This document shows, one piece after another, positions 539 to 43,126 of a DNA stretch of 64,000 nt. The stretch's first letter is position 1, and each line of letters begins with the position of its first letter. Source of the stretch: Deltaproteobacteria bacterium (GTDB lineage Bacteria > Desulfobacterota > Desulfobulbia > Desulfobulbales > SURF-16); NCBI GenBank assembly GCA_016219175.1, contig JACRCD010000032.1, positions 1,963 through 65,962 of the forward strand, in the 5' to 3' direction. The notes under the pieces were generated by a model that saw only the letters and a list, made by a program, of their open reading frames with translations, was not told the DNA's origin and searched no databases. The position numbers and the translations under genes were made by a program.

Positions 539-3091
539 ATGGTGCTTGGCAAGAAGGCAAAGGAACTGCTGAGTCACATCAAACCACCAGGGGTGCAGGG
601 GAAATTCTTGATCGGCCTTGCTTTCATTCTTTTTCTCTTTTGCCTTTTCTGGTCCGTTATTATTTTTACGCAGCAGAAAAAACGTCTGCAGGAGGAGGCT
701 CTGAACAAGGCCGAGCTGGTTATGGCGGCGGTAGACGCCAATCGCGCCTATGTTCAGAAAATTTTGCGGCCCCGGATGTATGCCTTGCTGGGCCAGGACA
801 GCTTTGTCATCGAGGCCATGTCCACCTCCTACGTAACCCGCGTTGTCATGGATAACTTCAAGGAAGACCTGCCGGATATTTCCTACCGCCGGGTTGCCAT
901 CAATGCCAAGAACCCGAAATTCGAGGCGGACCAGCGGGAAAAGGAGATGATCCGCTATTTTAATGATCACCCCCAGGCCCTGTCATGGCAAGGCATCCGC
1001 ACGGTTGCCGGCGAACAGTATTTCATGAAATTCAGCCCGGTCCGCTATGACCAATCTTGTCTTCATTGCCACGGCAGACCCGAGGACGCGCCGCGGAGCA
1101 TTGTCGCAACATATGGCGGGACCCGGGGGTTTTTCATGAAGACAGACCGGGTCAGCAGCGTGGTCAGTGTCGCCATCCCCGTGGGCGAAGGCTTGCGCCG
1201 CATCGGTAAATTCGCCTTTTCCGTGTTCAGCACCGTGTTCCTCTCCTTTTTTTGCATGTACGCCCTCATCGCTTTTTTCTTCAACCGGCTCATCATCCAG
1301 AACATCCGTGCGTTGCTGGATATCTTCCGTCTGAATCTCACCGACCAGAAAGGCGAACAGCTCTTTCGCCAGGCACGGAGCCTGGATGAAATCGGGGAGC
1401 TGAATGCGACCGCAACCCTCATTGCCCGGCACTTGCAGGAAAACCGGCTGCAACTCACCGATTACGCGGAAAACCTGGAGGGAAAGGTCGAGGAACGAAC
1501 CAGGGCGCTCCAGGAGTCCCAGGACCAGCTGCGCAGGCAGATGCAGGAACGGAATCGTGAGCTCCGGACCTTGAATATCATCGCCGAACTCATCACCCAG
1601 TCCGTGGATCTTCGCGCCATTCTCCCCAAGGTTTTGCGGCAAACCCTGGAGGTGATCCCGGCAAGAGGGGCGGGGATATACCTGTTTCACCCGGATCGCC
1701 AGGGGCTTTCCCTGCAGTGCCATGATAACGCCCCCGAACTTGCCGCCTCCCTTTCCTGCGATGTGATTTCCCATCGGATTCTTACCGAGGTGGAGGGCAA
1801 TGCTTCCGCCTCCTCGACGATCTGTGAGGCTGCCTGTGGGGAGCTGAACTTCTTCACCTCCGATTCAGTCGGGGGGAAATGCCTCAACATCCCGCTCTGC
1901 TGCCGGAAGAGGATTCTCGGCATCATGACCTTCACGGGGTATGATGTAGGCGAAATTGACCCCAGGCACCGGGAGCTTCTTCTCTCCATCGGCCGTCAGG
2001 TCGGCGTTACCATGGAAAGCCTGCAGAACATGGCCAGCCTCATGCAGAGCAAGGAGCTTCTCCAGTCGGTTTTTGATGCGATCGCGGACCTCGTCATGCT
2101 GGTTTCGCCGGACGGATTTCTCCGCATGGTGAACAAGGCCTTTCTGGCCAGATATGGTTTTAGTCCGGACACCGTCCTCAACCGGCACATAGAAGAGCTG
2201 GCCAGGATGCAACCGGTCCCCTTCGAGCTGTTCAGCCATATTTTCCAGATTAAGCTGCTGGAGCCTGTTTCCGATTTCAGCAAACTCCCCAACGGCCAGA
2301 TTTTCGAGACCCACTTTTACCCGGCCCTTGATGATCAGGGCGAGCTGAAAAATGTAGTCTGTTACGCCAAGGACGTGACCCAGCAAAAACAGGTGGAGCA
2401 CCGCATGCAGCAGGCGGAAAAGCTGGTCGCCCTTGGGCAGCTGGCTGCCGGAGTCGCCCACGAAATCAACAATCCCCTCGGGATTATCCTCTGCTATACC
2501 GACTTGTTGAAAGAAGATTTTGCCGGCTTGCCGGATAAAATCGAAGACTTGGGCGTTATTGAAAAGCATGCGAAAAACTGCCAGCGTATTGTCCACGACC
2601 TGTTGAGCTTCGCCAGGAACCAGCAGACCACGAGGGCGCCCGGCTCACTGAATGCTATCATCGAACAGGTGATTTCCATGGTTGCCGGTCAACTTGCCAA
2701 GCAGGGAATAACCGTGGCGCGGAAATTGGACCCCGATATTCCCTTCCTTGACATGGATGGTGAAAAAATGAAGCAGGTTTTCATGAACCTGTTCATCAAC
2801 GCCGCCCAGGCCATCGGCGAAAAGGGAGAAATCAGCATTGAGTCGAACTGTCTGCGGACCAAGGGACAGGTGAGGATCGTTGTTCGTGATACGGGTCCCG
2901 GCATTGCCCCGGAGATCCAGCACAAGATCTTTGAGCCGTTTTTTACCACCAAGGGACCGAGGGACGGTACCGGTCTCGGTCTTTCCTTGAGCTATGGGAT
3001 CGTCCGTGACCATGGCGGGGAGATTTATGTCCGGAGCAAACCGGGGAAAGGCGCGGCCTTTATCATTATTCTGCCGCTCCCTGGAGCATGA
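539..3091 (+). CDS. Multidomain sensor histidine kinase: N-terminal TM, periplasmic CxxCH heme-c (Tll0287/DUF3365-like) domain, TM, HAMP/coiled coil, GAF, PAS, HisKA, HATPase
   Basis: 850-aa ORF with the CLHCH motif at 1058-1072, a hydrophobic segment [24 protein letters not shown] and a coiled coil ([34 protein letters not shown]). H-box [13 protein letters not shown]-box [11 protein letters not shown] and G-boxes DTGPGI and GTGLGLS are present. Confidence 0.85.
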
Positions 3092-3120
3092 AAAGAACTG
3101 CGCGACAGGAGGGAGGGACT

Positions 3121-4569
<1,449 letters not shown>

Positions 4570-38120: not shown

Positions 38121-39638
38121 TCAACCCGCCAGGGTAACCCGCAGCACTTCGGAAATGGTGGTAATGCCGTCTTTTACCTTACGCCAGCCATCCTGGCGCA
38201 AATTCAGCATGCCTTTTTCCAGGGCGGTCTGTCTGATTTTTTCCGTGCTTGATCTCAGGTGGATTTCCTGCCGGATTTTATCACTTACCGGCAGGTATTC
38301 AAAAATGGCTGTTCTGCCCTTAAAGCCGGTGTGCCTGCATTCATCGCAGCCGGCCCCGGCATAAAAGACGGTTGTCGCGGCCTCCTGCGGCGGAAGCTGC
38401 ATGGAGCGCACCAGTTTTTCCTCAGGAACTCTTTCCTCCTTGCAGTAGGGGCATATCTTGCGGACAAGGCGCTGGGCCAGCACGCCAAGCAGGGTGGAGC
38501 TGAGCAGGAAATTTTCAACGCCCATGTCCAGCAGCCTGGTAATGGCCCCGGGCGCGTCGTTAGTATGCAGGGTGCTGAAGAGCAGGTGCCCGGTAAGAGC
38601 CGACTGGATGGCGATATCGGCGGTCTCCCGGTCCCGGATTTCGCCCACCAGGATAATATCGGGGTCCTGGCGGACGATGGAGCGGAGGCCGTTGGCAAAG
38701 GTGAAACCGATCTTGGGGTTGACCTGGATCTGGTTGATGCCCTCCAGCTGATATTCGATGGGGTCTTCCAGGGTCATGATTTTGTATTCGGGCGAATTGA
38801 TCTTGTCCAGCGTGGTATAGAGGGTGGATGTCTTGCCGCTGCCCGTGGGGCCGGTGACCAGGATCATGCCGTAGGGCTGGGAGATAAGGGCGTAGTACTC
38901 ATCCAGCAGATCCTCGGGAAAACCGAGCTGGCGCAGGTCAAGTATCAGCGACTCACGGTCGAGAATACGCATGACCAGGCTTTCCCCATGGTGGGTCGGG
39001 ATGGTGGACACGCGGAAATCAATCTCCCGTTCACCGATTTTAAGCTTGATGCGCCCGTCCTGGGGACGGCGGCGTTCGGAGATGTCAAGCTTGGCCATGA
39101 TCTTGATACGGGAGATGATGGCGGCCTGGAGGCGCGGGGGCGGGGATTCCACCTCGCGCAGCAGCCCGTCCAGACGATAGCGGACCCGGAAACGGTGCTC
39201 AAAGGGCTCGAAGTGGATATCGCTCGCTTTTTCTTCAACCGCCTGCAGGATGAGCCTGTTTACCAACCGGATAATCGGGGCCTCCTGGGCCATGTCCCGC
39301 AGATGATTGACATCATCATCCACCTCGGCAACGATCTCAGAGATGTCCTTGCCCGCCTCCTCAATGATCGTATCAATGGACTGGCTGTTGATGCCGTAAA
39401 GCCGGTCAACGGCCTCCATGATATCATCAATACGACCGGGCTGGGCCACCACGCGATAGCCGTAAGCGAATTCAATGGTCTTTATGGTCGCGTAATCTTC
39501 AGGATCGGCAATAGCGATCTGTAATGTGTTATCCATGAGGTGCAGGGGCACGAATTTGCCCTGTTTCATGAATTTAACAGTGAGATTTTCCAGGGTCACC
39601 GCTTCGCGGGGATAATCATTAAATGATAATAGGGTCAT
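38121..39638 (-). CDS. gspE: Type II secretion ATPase GspE
   Basis: Walker A GPTGSGKTST, Asp/His boxes (DPDIILVGEIRD, TGHLLFSTLHTND) and tetracysteine CPYC...CDEC. N-terminal GspE_N/MshEN-type domain. Confidence 0.9.
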   Translation of the reverse strand: MTLLSFNDYPREAVTLENLTVKFMKQGKFVPLHLMDNTLQIAIADPEDYATIKTIEFAYGYRVVAQPGRIDDIMEAVDRLYGINSQSIDTIIEEAGKDISEIVAEVDDDVNHLRDMAQEAPIIRLVNRLILQAVEEKASDIHFEPFEHRFRVRYRLDGLLREVESPPPRLQAAIISRIKIMAKLDISERRRPQDGRIKLKIGEREIDFRVSTIPTHHGESLVMRILDRESLILDLRQLGFPEDLLDEYYALISQPYGMILVTGPTGSGKTSTLYTTLDKINSPEYKIMTLEDPIEYQLEGINQIQVNPKIGFTFANGLRSIVRQDPDIILVGEIRDRETADIAIQSALTGHLLFSTLHTNDAPGAITRLLDMGVENFLLSSTLLGVLAQRLVRKICPYCKEERVPEEKLVRSMQLPPQEAATTVFYAGAGCDECRHTGFKGRTAIFEYLPVSDKIRQEIHLRSSTEKIRQTALEKGMLNLRQDGWRKVKDGITTISEVLRVTLAG

Positions 39639-39691
39639 AGTTGAATCGTTATTTGGTGAAGTGCCTAAGGCTCTTAAAAAGTGTCCAAGGT

Positions 39692-39817
39692 GAGCCTATT
39701 GCAGAATAAGCATAAGAGTGCATCCTGTCATTTCGACCGAAGGGAGAAATCTAATAAAATCAAGGCAATTAAAGATTCCTCACTACGTTCGGAATGACAC
39801 TCAAGTTTATTCCGCCA
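39692..39817 (+). repeat. Nested-palindrome repeat, copy B (outer right arm degenerate)
   Basis: Inner hairpin gtcatttcgaccgaagggagaaatc (39727-) ... gattcctcactacgttcggaatgac (-39798). The outer left arm is gagcctattgcagaataagcataagag. Confidence 0.75.
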
Positions 39818-39830
39818 TAGCCACAAATCT

Positions 39831-39930
39831 GTCATTTCGAGATCACCACACACCTGTCATTTCGACCGGAGGGAGAAATCGTAAAGAAATTAACAGGGGG
39901 GAATGATTCCTCACATTCGTTCGGAATGAC
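39831..39930 (+). repeat. Inner-hairpin-only repeat copy B'
   Basis: gtcatttcgag...gtcatttcgaccggagggagaaatc ... gattcctcacattcgttcggaatgac. Confidence 0.7.
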
Positions 39931-40087
39931 GAATTTGATTTTTTTTTCCGGGCCATCAAACTTGAACGCAAATTTTGGTGTCAAGGTAAAATATGCCGAA
40001 TTCAGTCGGCCTGAATTTACAGCATTTATGTCGTTATGAGCTAGATTTTTTTTAAAAAAAGAATATAACTCATCAGGTATTAAGGTT

Positions 40088-40120
40088 GAAGCCTTCAGCC
40101 TATCCGTCTTGAATAGTTAC
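40088..40120 (-). repeat. Single arm of the 13251-13376 palindrome family
   Basis: gaagccttcagcctatc...gaatagttac is the reverse complement of gtaactatccag..gataggctgaaggct at 13252-13280, with a few differences. Confidence 0.55.
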
Positions 40121-40205
40121 TTTTGACTTTGGTTCCGTCGTTTCGGTCGTTGTGGCTTTATCGTTTCGACCGCAATCATGTTATTTAAACAATAATTATG
40201 ATATT

Positions 40206-40358
40206 GAGGTTCTTGCAAAATAAGCAAAAGAGTGCCTCCAGTCATTTCGACCGAAATCCTGTCATTTCGACCACAGGGAGAAATCTAATAAAATCAAGGC
40301 GATTAAAGATTCCTCACTACGTTCGGAATGACACACAAGTTCATTTTGCAAGAGGCTC
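40206..40358 (+). repeat. Nested-palindrome repeat, copy C (full length)
   Basis: gaggttcttgcaaaataagcaaaagag ... two gtcatttcgacc units ... agggagaaatct-loop-gattcctcactacgttcggaatgac ... ttcattttgcaagaggctc. Confidence 0.85.
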
Positions 40359-40370
40359 TATTGTAACCAG

Positions 40371-40430
40371 AATCCTGTCATTTCAACCATAATCATGTCA
40401 TTTCGACCAGAATCCTGTCATTTCGACCGC
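40371..40430 (+). repeat. Three exact-phase 20-bp direct repeats (aatcNtgtcatttcRaccNN)
   Basis: Units at 40371-40390, 40391-40410 and 40411-40430. The last unit runs into the left inverted repeat of the GIY-YIG unit. Confidence 0.85.
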
Positions 40431-40780
40431 AGGGAGAAATCTGATGCCTTTAACAAAACAATACTTTGTTTACCTGATCACCAACTGGAATCACAAAGTC
40501 ATGTATGTCGGCGTTACAAGCAACCTTATACGTCGCATTTACGAGCATAAAAATAAATTGTTTGATGGGTTCACAAAAAAGTACAAGGTCGATAAATTAG
40601 TATATTTTGAAGAAACCAGCGATGTTGCGGCCGCCATAGCCAGGGAAAAGGAGATCAAGAGGTGGCGGCGTGAAAAAAAGAACAATCTGGTGGTAAAGAT
40701 GAATCCCGACTGGCAAGATTTAAGCGCAACGTGGTCTGGTGGTTCCGCGGGGAAGATTTCTCCCTGCGGTCGAAATGACA
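40416..40780 (+). mobile_element. GIY-YIG ORF bracketed by perfect 27-bp terminal inverted repeats (candidate autonomous member of the repeat family)
   Basis: tgtcatttcgaccgcagggagaaatct at 40416-40442 is the exact reverse complement of 40754-40780. The left repeat supplies AGGGAG 8 nt before the ATG, and the right repeat encodes the ORF tail KISPCGRND. Confidence 0.6.
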
Positions 40781-40788
40781 AAAACTAG
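40444..40788 (+). CDS. Small GIY-YIG (URI-domain, COG2827-type) nuclease-superfamily protein
   Basis: 114 aa: YFVYLITNWNHKVMYVGVTSNLIRRIYEHK...KLVYFEETSDVAAAIAREKEIKRWRREKK. This gives GIY (YLIT) / YVG motifs, then R, E and the helical tail. Confidence 0.8.
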   Translation: MPLTKQYFVYLITNWNHKVMYVGVTSNLIRRIYEHKNKLFDGFTKKYKVDKLVYFEETSDVAAAIAREKEIKRWRREKKNNLVVKMNPDWQDLSATWSGGSAGKISPCGRNDKN

Positions 40789-40990
40789 TAGTTCGTTTCA
40801 TATAAATATTTACATTTTCCTATTCGGTTGAGTCTGCCAAAAGCGACTAGTGGAGCGGTTTTCACGGTTCGGCAAGCTCAGCATGGACGGTAAAGCTTTT
40901 AGCAAAACGGACCACTAGAACTTGGGCATTCATTTCGGCCATTACACGATTATTCTAACCATCTACGCCGTAATTACAACCATCAGCGCC

Positions 40991-41157
40991 GTCATTTCGA
41001 CCGCCTGCTCTGCCATTTCGACCATCGCCCACTTTGTCATTTCCGCCATCCGCGCCTCTGTCATTTCGACCGCCTACTCTGTCATTTCGACCGCAGGGAG
41101 AAATCTTTATAAAATATCGGCATAGTGATAGATTCCTCACCTGCGTTAGGAATGACA
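40991..41157 (+). repeat. Array of five gtcatttcgacc-type units (21-26 bp spacing) ending in an inner-hairpin copy
   Basis: Units start at about 40991, 41012, 41036, 41060 and 41081. The last continues as gtcatttcgaccgcagggagaaatc ... gattcctcacctgcgttaggaatgaca (to 41157). Confidence 0.75.
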
Positions 41158-41195
41158 ATTGCAGACTTTTGCTCAACAACCAATCTTGAACATTT

Positions 41196-41348
41196 GAGGC
41201 TCTTGCAAAATAAGCAAAAGAGCGCCTCCTGTCATTTCGACCAAAATCCTGTCATTTCGACCGAAGGGAGAAATCTAATAAAATCATGGCAATTAAAGAT
41301 TTCTCACTGCGTTCGGAATGACACGCAAGTTCATTTCGCAAGAGCCTC
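41196..41348 (+). repeat. Nested-palindrome repeat, copy D (full length)
   Basis: gaggctcttgcaaaataagcaaaagag ... gtcatttcgaccgaagggagaaatc ... gatttctcactgcgttcggaatgac ... ttcatttcgcaagagcctc. Confidence 0.85.
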
Positions 41349-41618
41349 ATTTTCAAAAGAATAAGCCGGGGGGGGTTGGTCGTATTTGAACTGCCCTGGT
41401 TTGTTTCAGCCAGCATAGTCTGAATTCCCTGTCCGGAACGCATGGGAAATTCCATGTGTGAAATTTCTCCCTGCTGTCCAGTGAAAGGTCTTCTTGTATT
41501 CTAACATTCTGATATTGTGTGTTATTGTTGCTGTTTGCTAAATGGAGAAGCGAGAGAAAAAACAAAGTTGATTGTCGTTGAGTGAGTGTGGCCCATTATT
41601 TGCTAAGTATTTTGAAAC

Positions 41619-42782
41619 ATGAAAAACATTGGCAGAGTCATCCTCATCATTTCCTTGTTTGTTGTTGTCGGGCTGAGTGCGGGAATTGCCCGGGCGGAAG
41701 AAGAAGCGTGTAATCCGCAAGCCCTGCTGCTGCAGATGATCAACGACGCCAGGGAAAATCCGGAGGCGACGCTGAAGCTTTACGGGCTTGATCCGAAGCA
41801 GATGGTCAAAAGAATTCCGGCAATGGCGGATAACATAAAAAACGGCATGGCTCCCCTGTATCTGGTGGAAAAGCTTAACATGGCAGCCGAAGCGCATCTG
41901 GCGGATATGAAGGCCAACAATTATTACGCAAGCGAGTCCCTTGACGGCAGGCTGCCCTATGACCGGCTGGCGGCTCAGGGGTATCTGCCGGTGGCGGTTG
42001 AGGAGTCTTTGGCCATGCTGGGTTTTCGCAATTTTGTTGAGCCCTGTCAAGCCGCGCGCATCATATTTTCCAACATGCTCCGCGACGAATGGGCCCAAAC
42101 CGACATGGCCGAGTTAAAGATATTGCAACCCGGTTTGTCCGACATAGGTATTTCCTTTGGCACGGGCACAATCCGCAACGGCCAATTTGTCTATAATTAT
42201 TATGCCGCTGTCTGTGATATTGCCGCAAATCTTCTCAGTGTTGTGGAAACAGAAGTGGTTCGGCAGGTGAGCGTTGCCCGCCGGGAGCCGGTAGCCTTTG
42301 CACAAGAAGCGGAAATTGATGTTGAGGAGCTGCTGGCGGAAAACCCTCAGTATGGAGAGCTGCTGAATACTTCTTATCCCGCCGTCTTGGAGGATGAAGT
42401 TCTTGTTGAAACGGCCCAGGTAGTGGGTGAGGAGATTCTTTCCGGCTCGGCGGCCCCGGATGTCGGGTTAGCTAAGGAACGTATCGAGGCAATGCTAGCC
42501 GCCAGCGGCAAAAAATATGACAGTGTTGTCGGGACATACCGCATGATGGTGACTGTTGAGGCAGTGGATGTCATGGCCGCGGCCCAAGCGCACCTCGGCA
42601 GGATTTTCGCCCGGGAACTGGGGGTGGCTGCATCGGAAAGAACCATGCTGAATCCCGGGGTGAACAGGATTGGGCTGCGGGTCATCAGCAGTAGCCCTGG
42701 TGAATGGTACAGCGATAGTAATAATCCCAGCGGTCATTATAATGTCATGCTGGTTCTGCTGTTTGCCCATGTTGCTGACTGA
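41619..42782 (+). CDS. Secreted protein with two CAP/SCP (YkwD-like) domains
   Basis: Signal peptide. LLLQMINDARENP...LNMAAEAHLADMKANNYYASESLDGRLPYDRL matches the bacterial SCP pattern, and a second, more divergent copy lies in the C-terminal half. Confidence 0.5.
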   Translation: MKNIGRVILIISLFVVVGLSAGIARAEEEACNPQALLLQMINDARENPEATLKLYGLDPKQMVKRIPAMADNIKNGMAPLYLVEKLNMAAEAHLADMKANNYYASESLDGRLPYDRLAAQGYLPVAVEESLAMLGFRNFVEPCQAARIIFSNMLRDEWAQTDMAELKILQPGLSDIGISFGTGTIRNGQFVYNYYAAVCDIAANLLSVVETEVVRQVSVARREPVAFAQEAEIDVEELLAENPQYGELLNTSYPAVLEDEVLVETAQVVGEEILSGSAAPDVGLAKERIEAMLAASGKKYDSVVGTYRMMVTVEAVDVMAAAQAHLGRIFARELGVAASERTMLNPGVNRIGLRVISSSPGEWYSDSNNPSGHYNVMLVLLFAHVAD

Positions 42783-42823
42783 AACCCTCTGATTTTGCAT
42801 GAGAAAATATTTATTTAAAAAAA

Positions 42824-42852
42824 TTGACCTTGCGTGCGGAACTTGCTAGAAT
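42824..42852 (+). promoter_or_regulatory. Near-consensus sigma70-type promoter
   Basis: TTGACC (42824-42829), 17-nt spacer, TAGAAT (42847-42852). It points into repeat copy E and the 43210 gene. Confidence 0.5.
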
Positions 42853-42882
42853 CGATTAATTAAAATTAAGAAAATTACAGGT

Positions 42883-43039
42883 GAGGCCCTTGCAAAATAA
42901 GCAAAAGAGAACCTCCGGTCATTTCGAAAAAAGTATCTCCTGTCATTTCGACCGAAGGGAGAAATCTTATAAAAGCAAGGCAATTAAAGATTCCTCACTA
43001 CGTTCGGAATGACACGCAAGTTCATTTTTCAAGAGGCTC
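42883..43039 (+). repeat. Nested-palindrome repeat, copy E (full length)
   Basis: gaggcccttgcaaaataagcaaaagag ... gtcatttcgaccgaagggagaaatc ... gattcctcactacgttcggaatgac ... ttcatttttcaagaggctc. Confidence 0.85.
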
Positions 43040-43126
43040 GGGTAAAACCTGTTTTTGTTCGGTGTCTCATCATTTATTAATAAAAGGAGGTGTAAAGGGG
43101 GGAAGATAAATAGTAGTAAAAAGCAG

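Follow-up and report, generated by a model that had tools for sequence, protein, structure and literature searches.

The closest described counterpart of the locus analyzed here is the SsnA/NTS system of Neisseria meningitidis. SsnA (NMV_0044) is a 94-amino-acid (aa), single-domain GIY-YIG protein of the group CDD cd10448 (GIY-YIG_unchar_3) that binds a hairpin repeat, the NTS (CGTCATTCCCGCGMAVGCGGGAATCYRG), solely as single-stranded DNA (ssDNA) and solely in that strand, and nicks a few nucleotides (nt) upstream of it (Chenal et al., Nat Commun 2025, PMC11893778). SsnA is inactive on double-stranded DNA (dsDNA) and on RNA, and its cleavage is abolished by the substitutions Y6A, Y17A, and E64A. 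Within the NTS, cleavage requires the GTC 5′ of the palindrome, and no base is more critical for binding than the C that directly follows it. Three further Ssn homologs were tested and behave in the same way, and ssn genes in various phyla are flanked by Ssn-related motifs (SRMs). In Neisseria, the NTS clusters lie around surface-protein genes, and deletion of ssnA gives ∼five-fold more transformation with NTS-bearing DNA; the authors likened the NTS-ssnA-NTS arrangement to an insertion sequence and compared it with IS200/IS605 and REP/BIME (PMC11893778). Here we analyze a cassette of this type, a GIY-YIG gene between two inverted hairpin motifs, in a 64,000-nt stretch of DNA from an uncultured groundwater bacterium of the Desulfobulbales (GenBank assembly GCA_016219175.1, contig JACRCD010000032.1, positions 1,963 to 65,962). 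This whole stretch is referred to as the window.

The cassette is compact, at ∼365 bp, and comprises three features:

40416-40442, + strand: left SRM (a-type), T-GTC-ATTTC-GA-CC-GCA-GG-GA-GAAAT-C-T.
40444-40788, + strand: predicted ssn gene for a 114-aa single-domain GIY-YIG nuclease, identified from Pfam, homologs, and the SsnA alignment.
40754-40780, - strand: right SRM, a-type, convergent with the left one and lying inside the 3′ end of the open reading frame (ORF).

This anatomy agrees with an initial annotation made from the nucleotide sequence. The two arms (TGTCATTTCGACCGCAGGGAGAAATCT) are reverse-complementary at all 27 of 27 positions, with 311 nt between them, and the 114-aa ORF is the sole sizeable ORF in that interval. 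Perfect complementarity turns out to be peculiar to this copy and one other (L054) among 14 comparable cassettes. One nucleotide separates the left arm from the ATG, and the 3′ half of this arm doubles as the Shine-Dalgarno sequence, or ribosome-binding site, of the gene (AGGGAG, ending 7 nt before the ATG). Translation of the right arm gives KISPCGRND, which forms the tail of the ORF (...GKISPCGRNDKN).

The protein contains a single recognizable domain, Pfam GIY-YIG (PF01541), at residues 6-80 (E 9e-16; bit score 58.4, cut-off 22.6). Its conserved core comprises residues 1-97, and residues ∼99-114 are the translated right SRM. An AlphaFold2 model shows one compact β-β-α-α-β-α core followed by a disordered tail (residues 99-114, pLDDT < 50). 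In the Ssn paper, assignment to the family requires a BLASTP match to Neisseria SsnA at E < 1e-10 and a coverage of ≥75% (PMC11893778). As the SsnA reference we used the 94-aa N. gonorrhoeae ortholog (L081 1498-1779) rather than CAX49033.1; the window protein aligns with 85 of its 94 residues at 40% identity (E 9e-25), placing it within the family. The reference ORF retains Y6, Y17, and E64 and is accompanied by 16 NTS copies in 3.2 kb, and by these sequence features it is the gonococcal SsnA ortholog. Y10, Y21, and E68 of the window protein align with these three catalytic residues and are invariant in 28 homologs. By tblastn through 7.3 Gb, the window protein matched N. gonorrhoeae chromosomes (E 1e-8). 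Among 5.8 billion proteins, >5500 relatives were retrieved; the top 120 share 63-79% identity with the window protein, are mostly 95-99 aa long, and come from many phyla. Two records that PLSDB files as plasmids, NZ_CP119140.1 and NZ_CP119142.1 (L081), are 2.17-Mb N. gonorrhoeae chromosomes, and the SsnA ortholog is unannotated in the PLSDB gene table.

NCBIfam has no model for the Ssn family, PADLOC returned no match for the protein, and PHROGs gave two weak matches only. Sequence matches in the PDB, to designed TIM barrels, were discarded as spurious, being due to a lysine/arginine-rich helix alone, and no Ssn structure was found there. The best structural neighbors of the AlphaFold2 model are UPF0213/YhbQ (B. 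halodurans BH0048, PDB 1zg2), the N-terminal domain of UvrC, and Slx1, all weak (Foldseek E 2e-3 to 0.1, TM 0.4-0.5) and alike in size and in the GIY-YIG fold. We know of no repeat family associated with UPF0213; UvrC and Slx1 carry extra domains and act on damaged or branched duplex DNA.

Taking this together with the repeat data below, we put at roughly 80% the probability that the ORF encodes an Ssn-family single-domain GIY-YIG site-specific ssDNA endonuclease and that the cassette arms, along with the arms of the neighboring short repeats, are its cognate SRMs. By homology with SsnA and the three tested homologs, the protein would bind the SRM hairpin only in ssDNA, only in the strand reading GTCAT..., and would nick a few nt 5′ of the SRM. 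Because the two SRMs converge, the predicted nick sites would fall just outside both cassette ends, on opposite strands, and likewise for each short doublet. In a groundwater bacterium it might act to control ssDNA that enters or becomes exposed, as in Neisseria, or to spread the repeats.

The initial annotation had suggested that the nuclease may recognize the hairpins. Such recognition is shown experimentally for the Ssn family (PMC11893778) and, for the window protein as a homolog, would follow by analogy. Its remark that small COG2827-type GIY-YIG proteins have no established function is outdated since that work. It had also argued that a physical link between nuclease and repeat would be informative. 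Such a link does exist, but in the Ssn family it has been known since 2025, when it was both made and biochemically tested (PMC11893778), and so the window locus opens no new field. We found no follow-up to that paper, and the literature on COG2827, inverted repeats or hairpins, and REPIN/RAYT yielded no GIY-YIG-repeat link. What the window locus offers is a member of the Ssn/SRM family whose hairpins form a variant class and whose gene and repeats overlap in an unusually compact layout, and an additional candidate enzyme/site pair for ssDNA tools. Three of the findings below extend the published work: the recurrence of the cassette in unrelated genomes, the compensation within arms, and the iterated half-motifs.

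The cassette arm belongs to a dispersed family. Ten copies with ≤3 mismatches occur in the window, compared with 0 in 100 dinucleotide-preserving shuffles, and a looser motif search recovers 15-16 copies. Their arrangement is invariably in convergent pairs (392/439, 39727/39774, 39856/39905, 40261/40308, 40417/40755 around the gene, 41081/41131, 41251/41298, and 42942/42989). Within the short pairs, an a-type motif (GTCATTTCGACCGAAGGGAGAAATC) stands on the left and a b-type motif (GTCATTCCGAACGTAGTGAGGAATC) on the right. The initial annotation had described the 25-nt arm as the left arm of every short repeat in the region; this holds for the + strand copies (39726, 39855, 40260, 41080, 41250, and 42941), and one further unit, at 392-463, is inverted.

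The gene sits where the short doublets have a ∼20-nt spacer, and homing enzymes of the GIY-YIG type exist, so one could picture a classical homing endonuclease that cut "empty" double-stranded hairpin repeats and was copied into the loop by repair. We regard this as extremely improbable. Enzymes of the I-TevI type join a catalytic domain to a separate DNA-binding domain, and their genes lie in introns or stand alone in phages; the window protein has no DNA-binding domain beyond its ∼97-aa catalytic core. Its only NCBIfam hit, to the group I intron endonuclease model TIGR01453, is below threshold (score 20.5, cut-off 56). Unlike the cassette, the doublets in the window carry a b-type arm on the right, and the locus is chromosomal, beside T2SSE ATPase and CAP-domain genes. 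The characterized Ssn members, moreover, do not cut dsDNA (PMC11893778).

Each arm is a hairpin of its own. The 25-nt SRM consists of GTC, a 5-bp stem, GA, a 2-bp stem, a 3-nt loop, a 2-bp stem, GA, a 5-bp stem, and C, so that the motif class is written GTC-ATTTC-GA-CC-GAA-GG-GA-GAAAT-C. Both arms of the cassette share with the NTS the build of a directional hairpin: (T)GTC, the palindrome ATTTC...GAAAT, and then C. For a covariation analysis we assembled 72 distinct 25-nt motifs, picked on the invariant letters alone and blind to pairing, and counted the structure ...(((((..((...))..))))). on them. Paired cells make up 95.2% in the motifs and 79.2% in shuffles, and cells with both partners changed number 85 as against 24 in shuffles (0 of 500 shuffles reach either value). 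Compensatory changes occur at six of the seven pairs, and controls in which the structure was slid along the motif collapse. Some variants contain GCGAAGC. This heptamer is an unusually stable DNA mini-hairpin.

The same compensation is seen within single cassettes. In the 14 with canonical layout, every difference between the left and the right arm falls in the loop or at one of the paired positions 6/22, 7/21, 11/17, and 12/16. Because the arms differ by compensatory pairs within each arm, the functional, selected unit is the single 25-nt hairpin and not the long inverted repeat; within-arm compensation, with decaying arm-to-arm complementarity, argues against a role for the 27-bp stem and for single-hairpin recognition as in the Ssn model. 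It also bears on a role at the RNA level, in which the 27-bp stem of a read-through transcript would pair the mRNA ends and either hide the Shine-Dalgarno sequence or make an RNase III site. With perfectly complementary arms and the Shine-Dalgarno sequence in the left one, that stem would certainly form in RNA from the window. We nevertheless consider an RNA-level role improbable, because the arms differ in 12 of the 14 cassettes in ways that preserve their own hairpins rather than pairing with each other, and because the majority of motif copies are not beside any gene. G-T pairs are rare among the variants (10 cells vs 85 full compensations), as expected for DNA rather than RNA, although this is not decisive. 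Rfam gave no match at gathering thresholds across the whole window and none at E ≤ 1 for 39600-43100, and SsnA itself does not bind RNA (PMC11893778).

As the initial annotation had proposed, relatives of the window gene were surveyed for flanking repeats. The set comprised 80 loci from species-representative genomes, with Desulfobacterota, Chloroflexota, Nitrospirota, Planctomycetota, Armatimonadota, Actinomycetota, the candidate phyla radiation (CPR), and Bacillota among them; the gene counts are for 83 homologous genes. The motif adjoins the gene in most of the 80 loci, often with 0-3 mismatches to the window arm. It lies on both sides within 400 nt of 48 genes, convergently in 25, and in about 20 of the 83 the upstream motif stops 1-4 nt short of the start codon. 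With an anchor for the window-type motif, GTCA-N4-GA-N7-9-GA-N4-TC, a copy is found within 500 nt of 74 of the 83 genes and none in the gonococcal locus. The published SRM pattern, HGTCWYN(0-2)YYVSBRHN(0-5)WNVSBRGN(0-2)RNCYNB (PMC11893778), gives 9 matches in the gonococcal locus.

Several observations weigh against assigning the window locus to the Ssn/SRM family. The published pattern has 0 matches in the window and occurs near only 1 of the 83 genes of the clade. The GA..GA internal loop is missing from the NTS, and its invariance among the 72 motifs is by construction, since those letters were part of the selection pattern. By nearest-neighbor DNA parameters the single hairpin is no more stable than shuffles (-2.6 kcal/mol, z -0.1 to -0.6); the structural evidence accordingly rests on covariation, as energies do not single out the hairpin. 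No characterized Ssn protein is closer to the window protein than ∼40% identity, and that a single enzyme acts on both a-type and b-type motifs is a presumption. Finally, the high copy number of the repeat units, whose word depth in the source groundwater metagenome is 350-2100 compared with 8-10 for unique DNA, may include copies from other community organisms.

Since the published pattern fails here and the clade's own anchor matches 74 of 83 genes, we read the window clade as an Ssn clade with its own hairpin class. A large, cross-phylum part of the Ssn family would thus use a hairpin with a GA..GA-interrupted stem that the published pattern misses, and because it is missed, the published rates of ssn genes with cognate repeats are probably too low.

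The locus shares several features with the Neisseria system. In both, the protein is a single GIY-YIG domain of ∼94-97 aa with identical catalytic residues, the gene is flanked by a directional hairpin repeat built of GTC, a palindrome, and C, and one gene copy accompanies many repeat copies, which are clustered in doublets and arrays. They differ in that protein identity is only 40%, the window stem is interrupted by the conserved GA..GA, and the host, unlike the competent pathogen Neisseria, is an uncultured groundwater bacterium. Their layouts are also distinct. In the window, the two SRMs are convergent and either adjoin or overlap the ORF: the left one contains the ribosome-binding site, and translation continues into the right one. 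In N. gonorrhoeae, ∼106 nt separate the upstream NTS from the gene, and the downstream NTS lies in the gene orientation. A second resemblance is to REP/REPIN-RAYT and IS200/IS605, which share the short imperfect palindrome acting as an ssDNA hairpin (for the window, by homology), the inverted doublets, and the BIME-like arrays. As in those systems, a single-copy gene lies between inverted copies of a repeat that is dispersed as doublets. In contrast to their HUH (Y1) tyrosine transposases, the window enzyme is a GIY-YIG hydrolytic nuclease for which no covalent intermediate or strand transfer is known.

The extension of the ORF into the right SRM varies among homologs. In the 30 genes with a nearby right SRM, the frame reads through it in 16, stops inside it in 3, and stops before it in 11. 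Many longer homologs end in ISPxGRNDK, DFSLRSK*, or RSLPSVEMT, which are the three reading frames of the right arm. Because all three frames are used, the right arm is kept as DNA and not as protein; because frames vary, many genes stop before the arm, and the tail is predicted to be disordered, the tail of the window ORF is incidental read-through. The N- or C-terminal extensions of called proteins P0022, P0028, P0029, P0053, P0111, and P0114 are likewise translated hairpin motifs or half-motif arrays, with LSFRPTGEIL...ISPSGRND and GRDDKGVGRNDKETGRDDKG as examples. Such extensions are gene-calling artifacts that inflate protein lengths in the ssn family.

Beyond the cassette, the following repeat features were mapped in the window, unstranded unless a strand is given:

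39726-39799: SRM doublet, a-type (+) 39727-39751 and b-type (-) 39774-39798, inside the 155-nt nested unit 39670-39824.
39855-39931: SRM doublet, a-type (+) 39856-39880 and b-like (-) 39905-39930.
40204-40358: 155-nt nested palindromic unit with a half-SRM at 40241, a-type (+) 40261-40285, and b-type (-) 40308-40332.
40370-40415, + strand: tandem 5′ half-SRMs directly 5′ of the left SRM, GTCATTTCAACC at 40377 and GTCATTTCGACC at 40397, with a 20-nt period.
40981-41157: 5′ half-SRM array plus doublet, with halves at 40991, 41012, and 41060 (21-24-nt period), a-type (+) 41081-41105, and degenerate b-type (-) 41131-41156.
41194-41348: 155-nt nested unit, 92% identical to 40204-40358, with a-type (+) 41251-41275 and a b/a hybrid (-) 41298-41322.
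42876-43040: nested unit, a-type (+) 42942-42966 and b-type (-) 42989-43013.
366-499: nested unit in the opposite orientation, b-type (+) 392-416 and a-type (-) 439-463.

Five of the pairs are nested in a ∼155-nt palindromic unit with the outer repeat TTGCAAAAT.../...ATTTTGCAA. This outer repeat, which encloses the a/b doublet, is also given as GAGGCTCTTGCAAAAT.../...ATTTTGCAAGAGCCTC. Folded as DNA, the nested unit 40204-40358 has z values of -3.2 / -3.5. In other loci, doublets are arrayed in tandem in a BIME/NIME-like manner (L017 4441-4860; L040 2601-2910; L014 1-350 and 780-1000), with periods of 84, 77, and 116 nt.

The half-motif arrays in this list are instances of a wider pattern in which the 5′ half of the motif is repeated in tandem, 20-26 nt apart, 5′ of full SRMs. 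Around 273 SRMs, orphan halves within 60 nt number 45 upstream and 6 downstream. The window contains two such series (40377/40397/40417 and 40991-41081), and others are found in L057, L015, L014, L030, and the gonococcal locus (L081 1380-1470), and translated in database proteins. The side on which the halves accumulate is the side where SsnA is reported to nick, and they are a possible in vivo trace of enzyme action. In the main text of the Ssn paper (PMC11893778), we found no description of half-motif arrays; there, "tandem" appears 0 times, "partial" once, and "half" refers to split-NTS oligonucleotide assays.

The initial annotation had gone further and proposed an autonomous element with non-autonomous hairpin derivatives. 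On this account, the SRM-ssn-SRM cassette would be mobile, a GIY-YIG counterpart of IS200/IS605 or RAYT/REPIN, and the doublets would be non-autonomous units that it mobilizes; this would complement the Ssn assignment. The architecture fits this account: of the hallmarks of an insertion sequence paired with a miniature inverted-repeat transposable element, terminal inverted repeats are present, the predicted nick sites lie just beyond both cassette ends, and the Ssn authors themselves remark on an IS-like layout (PMC11893778). Comparison between genomes provides sharp boundaries. In an all-versus-all blastn of the gene regions, the cassettes of L006, L015, L010, L030, L009, L028, and L004 are 86-94% identical in DNA, and the homologous stretch, counted from the ATG, extends from -29 to about +322 (∼348 bp), ending at the outer SRM ends, with flanks that do not align. 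About five independent contexts across phyla are represented (L006/L028, L010/L030, L015, L009 from Chthonomonas, and L004). Across cassettes, the arms average 84-88% identity, compared with 44% at third codon positions, some pairs being perhaps slightly misaligned. In the Desulfobulbaceae locus L004, doublets at 2450-2618 and 3467-3634 share both the left (ATTTC) and right (ATCTC) arms with the cassette at 2912-3276, together with ∼20 nt of subterminal sequence, and enclose an unrelated 115-nt inside; they look like non-coding partners and not internal deletions. These facts fit the horizontal spread of a discrete unit with non-coding partners.

Other evidence points the opposite way. The ssn gene is single-copy in both the window and the metagenome (depth 9-11, vs 8-10 for unique DNA), and the comparison with related strains that the initial annotation had suggested revealed no empty site: strains 86-94% identical have the gene at this same position. 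When whole loci are compared, L006/L028 and L010/L030 turn out to be orthologous pairs, indicating vertical inheritance, and the sharp boundaries could equally arise with SRMs as recombination breakpoints. The enzyme is, furthermore, a GIY-YIG nuclease without known strand-transfer activity. We therefore hold mobility of the cassette to be possible but doubtful: the cross-phylum boundaries raise the standing of this account without proving past or present movement. More specifically, the ∼350-bp cassette might be a minimal autonomous element, driven by a GIY-YIG ssDNA nickase, that moves between phyla and seeds REPIN-like doublets, with the half-motif arrays as footprints of nicking and repair. 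We think this extended version unlikely; if true, hairpin-guided single-strand mobility would have a third, independent enzymatic solution besides those of HUH transposases and RAYTs. Whether or not it holds, the cassette boundaries and the within-arm compensation bear on the question of whether Ssn cassettes are, or were, mobile.

Two apparent signs of the gene's absence were examined and set aside. Joints in metagenome contigs that skip the gene (e.g., 40441->40755) share only the 27-nt arm with the window, and are thus other loci and not evidence of excision. An apparent absence of the gene in run X4 at 90% likeness disappears at 80%, where X4 has the gene at the same place. Separately, just upstream of its complete cassette (1601-1962), L015 contains a 124-nt truncated copy that corresponds to the cassette's 5′ end (1418-1541).

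The window contains no tRNA genes, and a scan for promoters and terminators gave only weak, uninformative 9-of-12 matches. The cluster of SRMs, which spans 39.7-43.0 kb, encloses the ssn gene and a gene for a CAP-domain secreted protein (41619-42782, + strand), and adjoins a gene for a T2SSE/MshEN (PilB/MshE-like) ATPase (38121-39638, - strand). This clustering near CAP-domain and ATPase genes loosely recalls the NTS clusters around surface-protein genes in Neisseria. Metagenome runs containing the window sequence come from groundwater and the subsurface.

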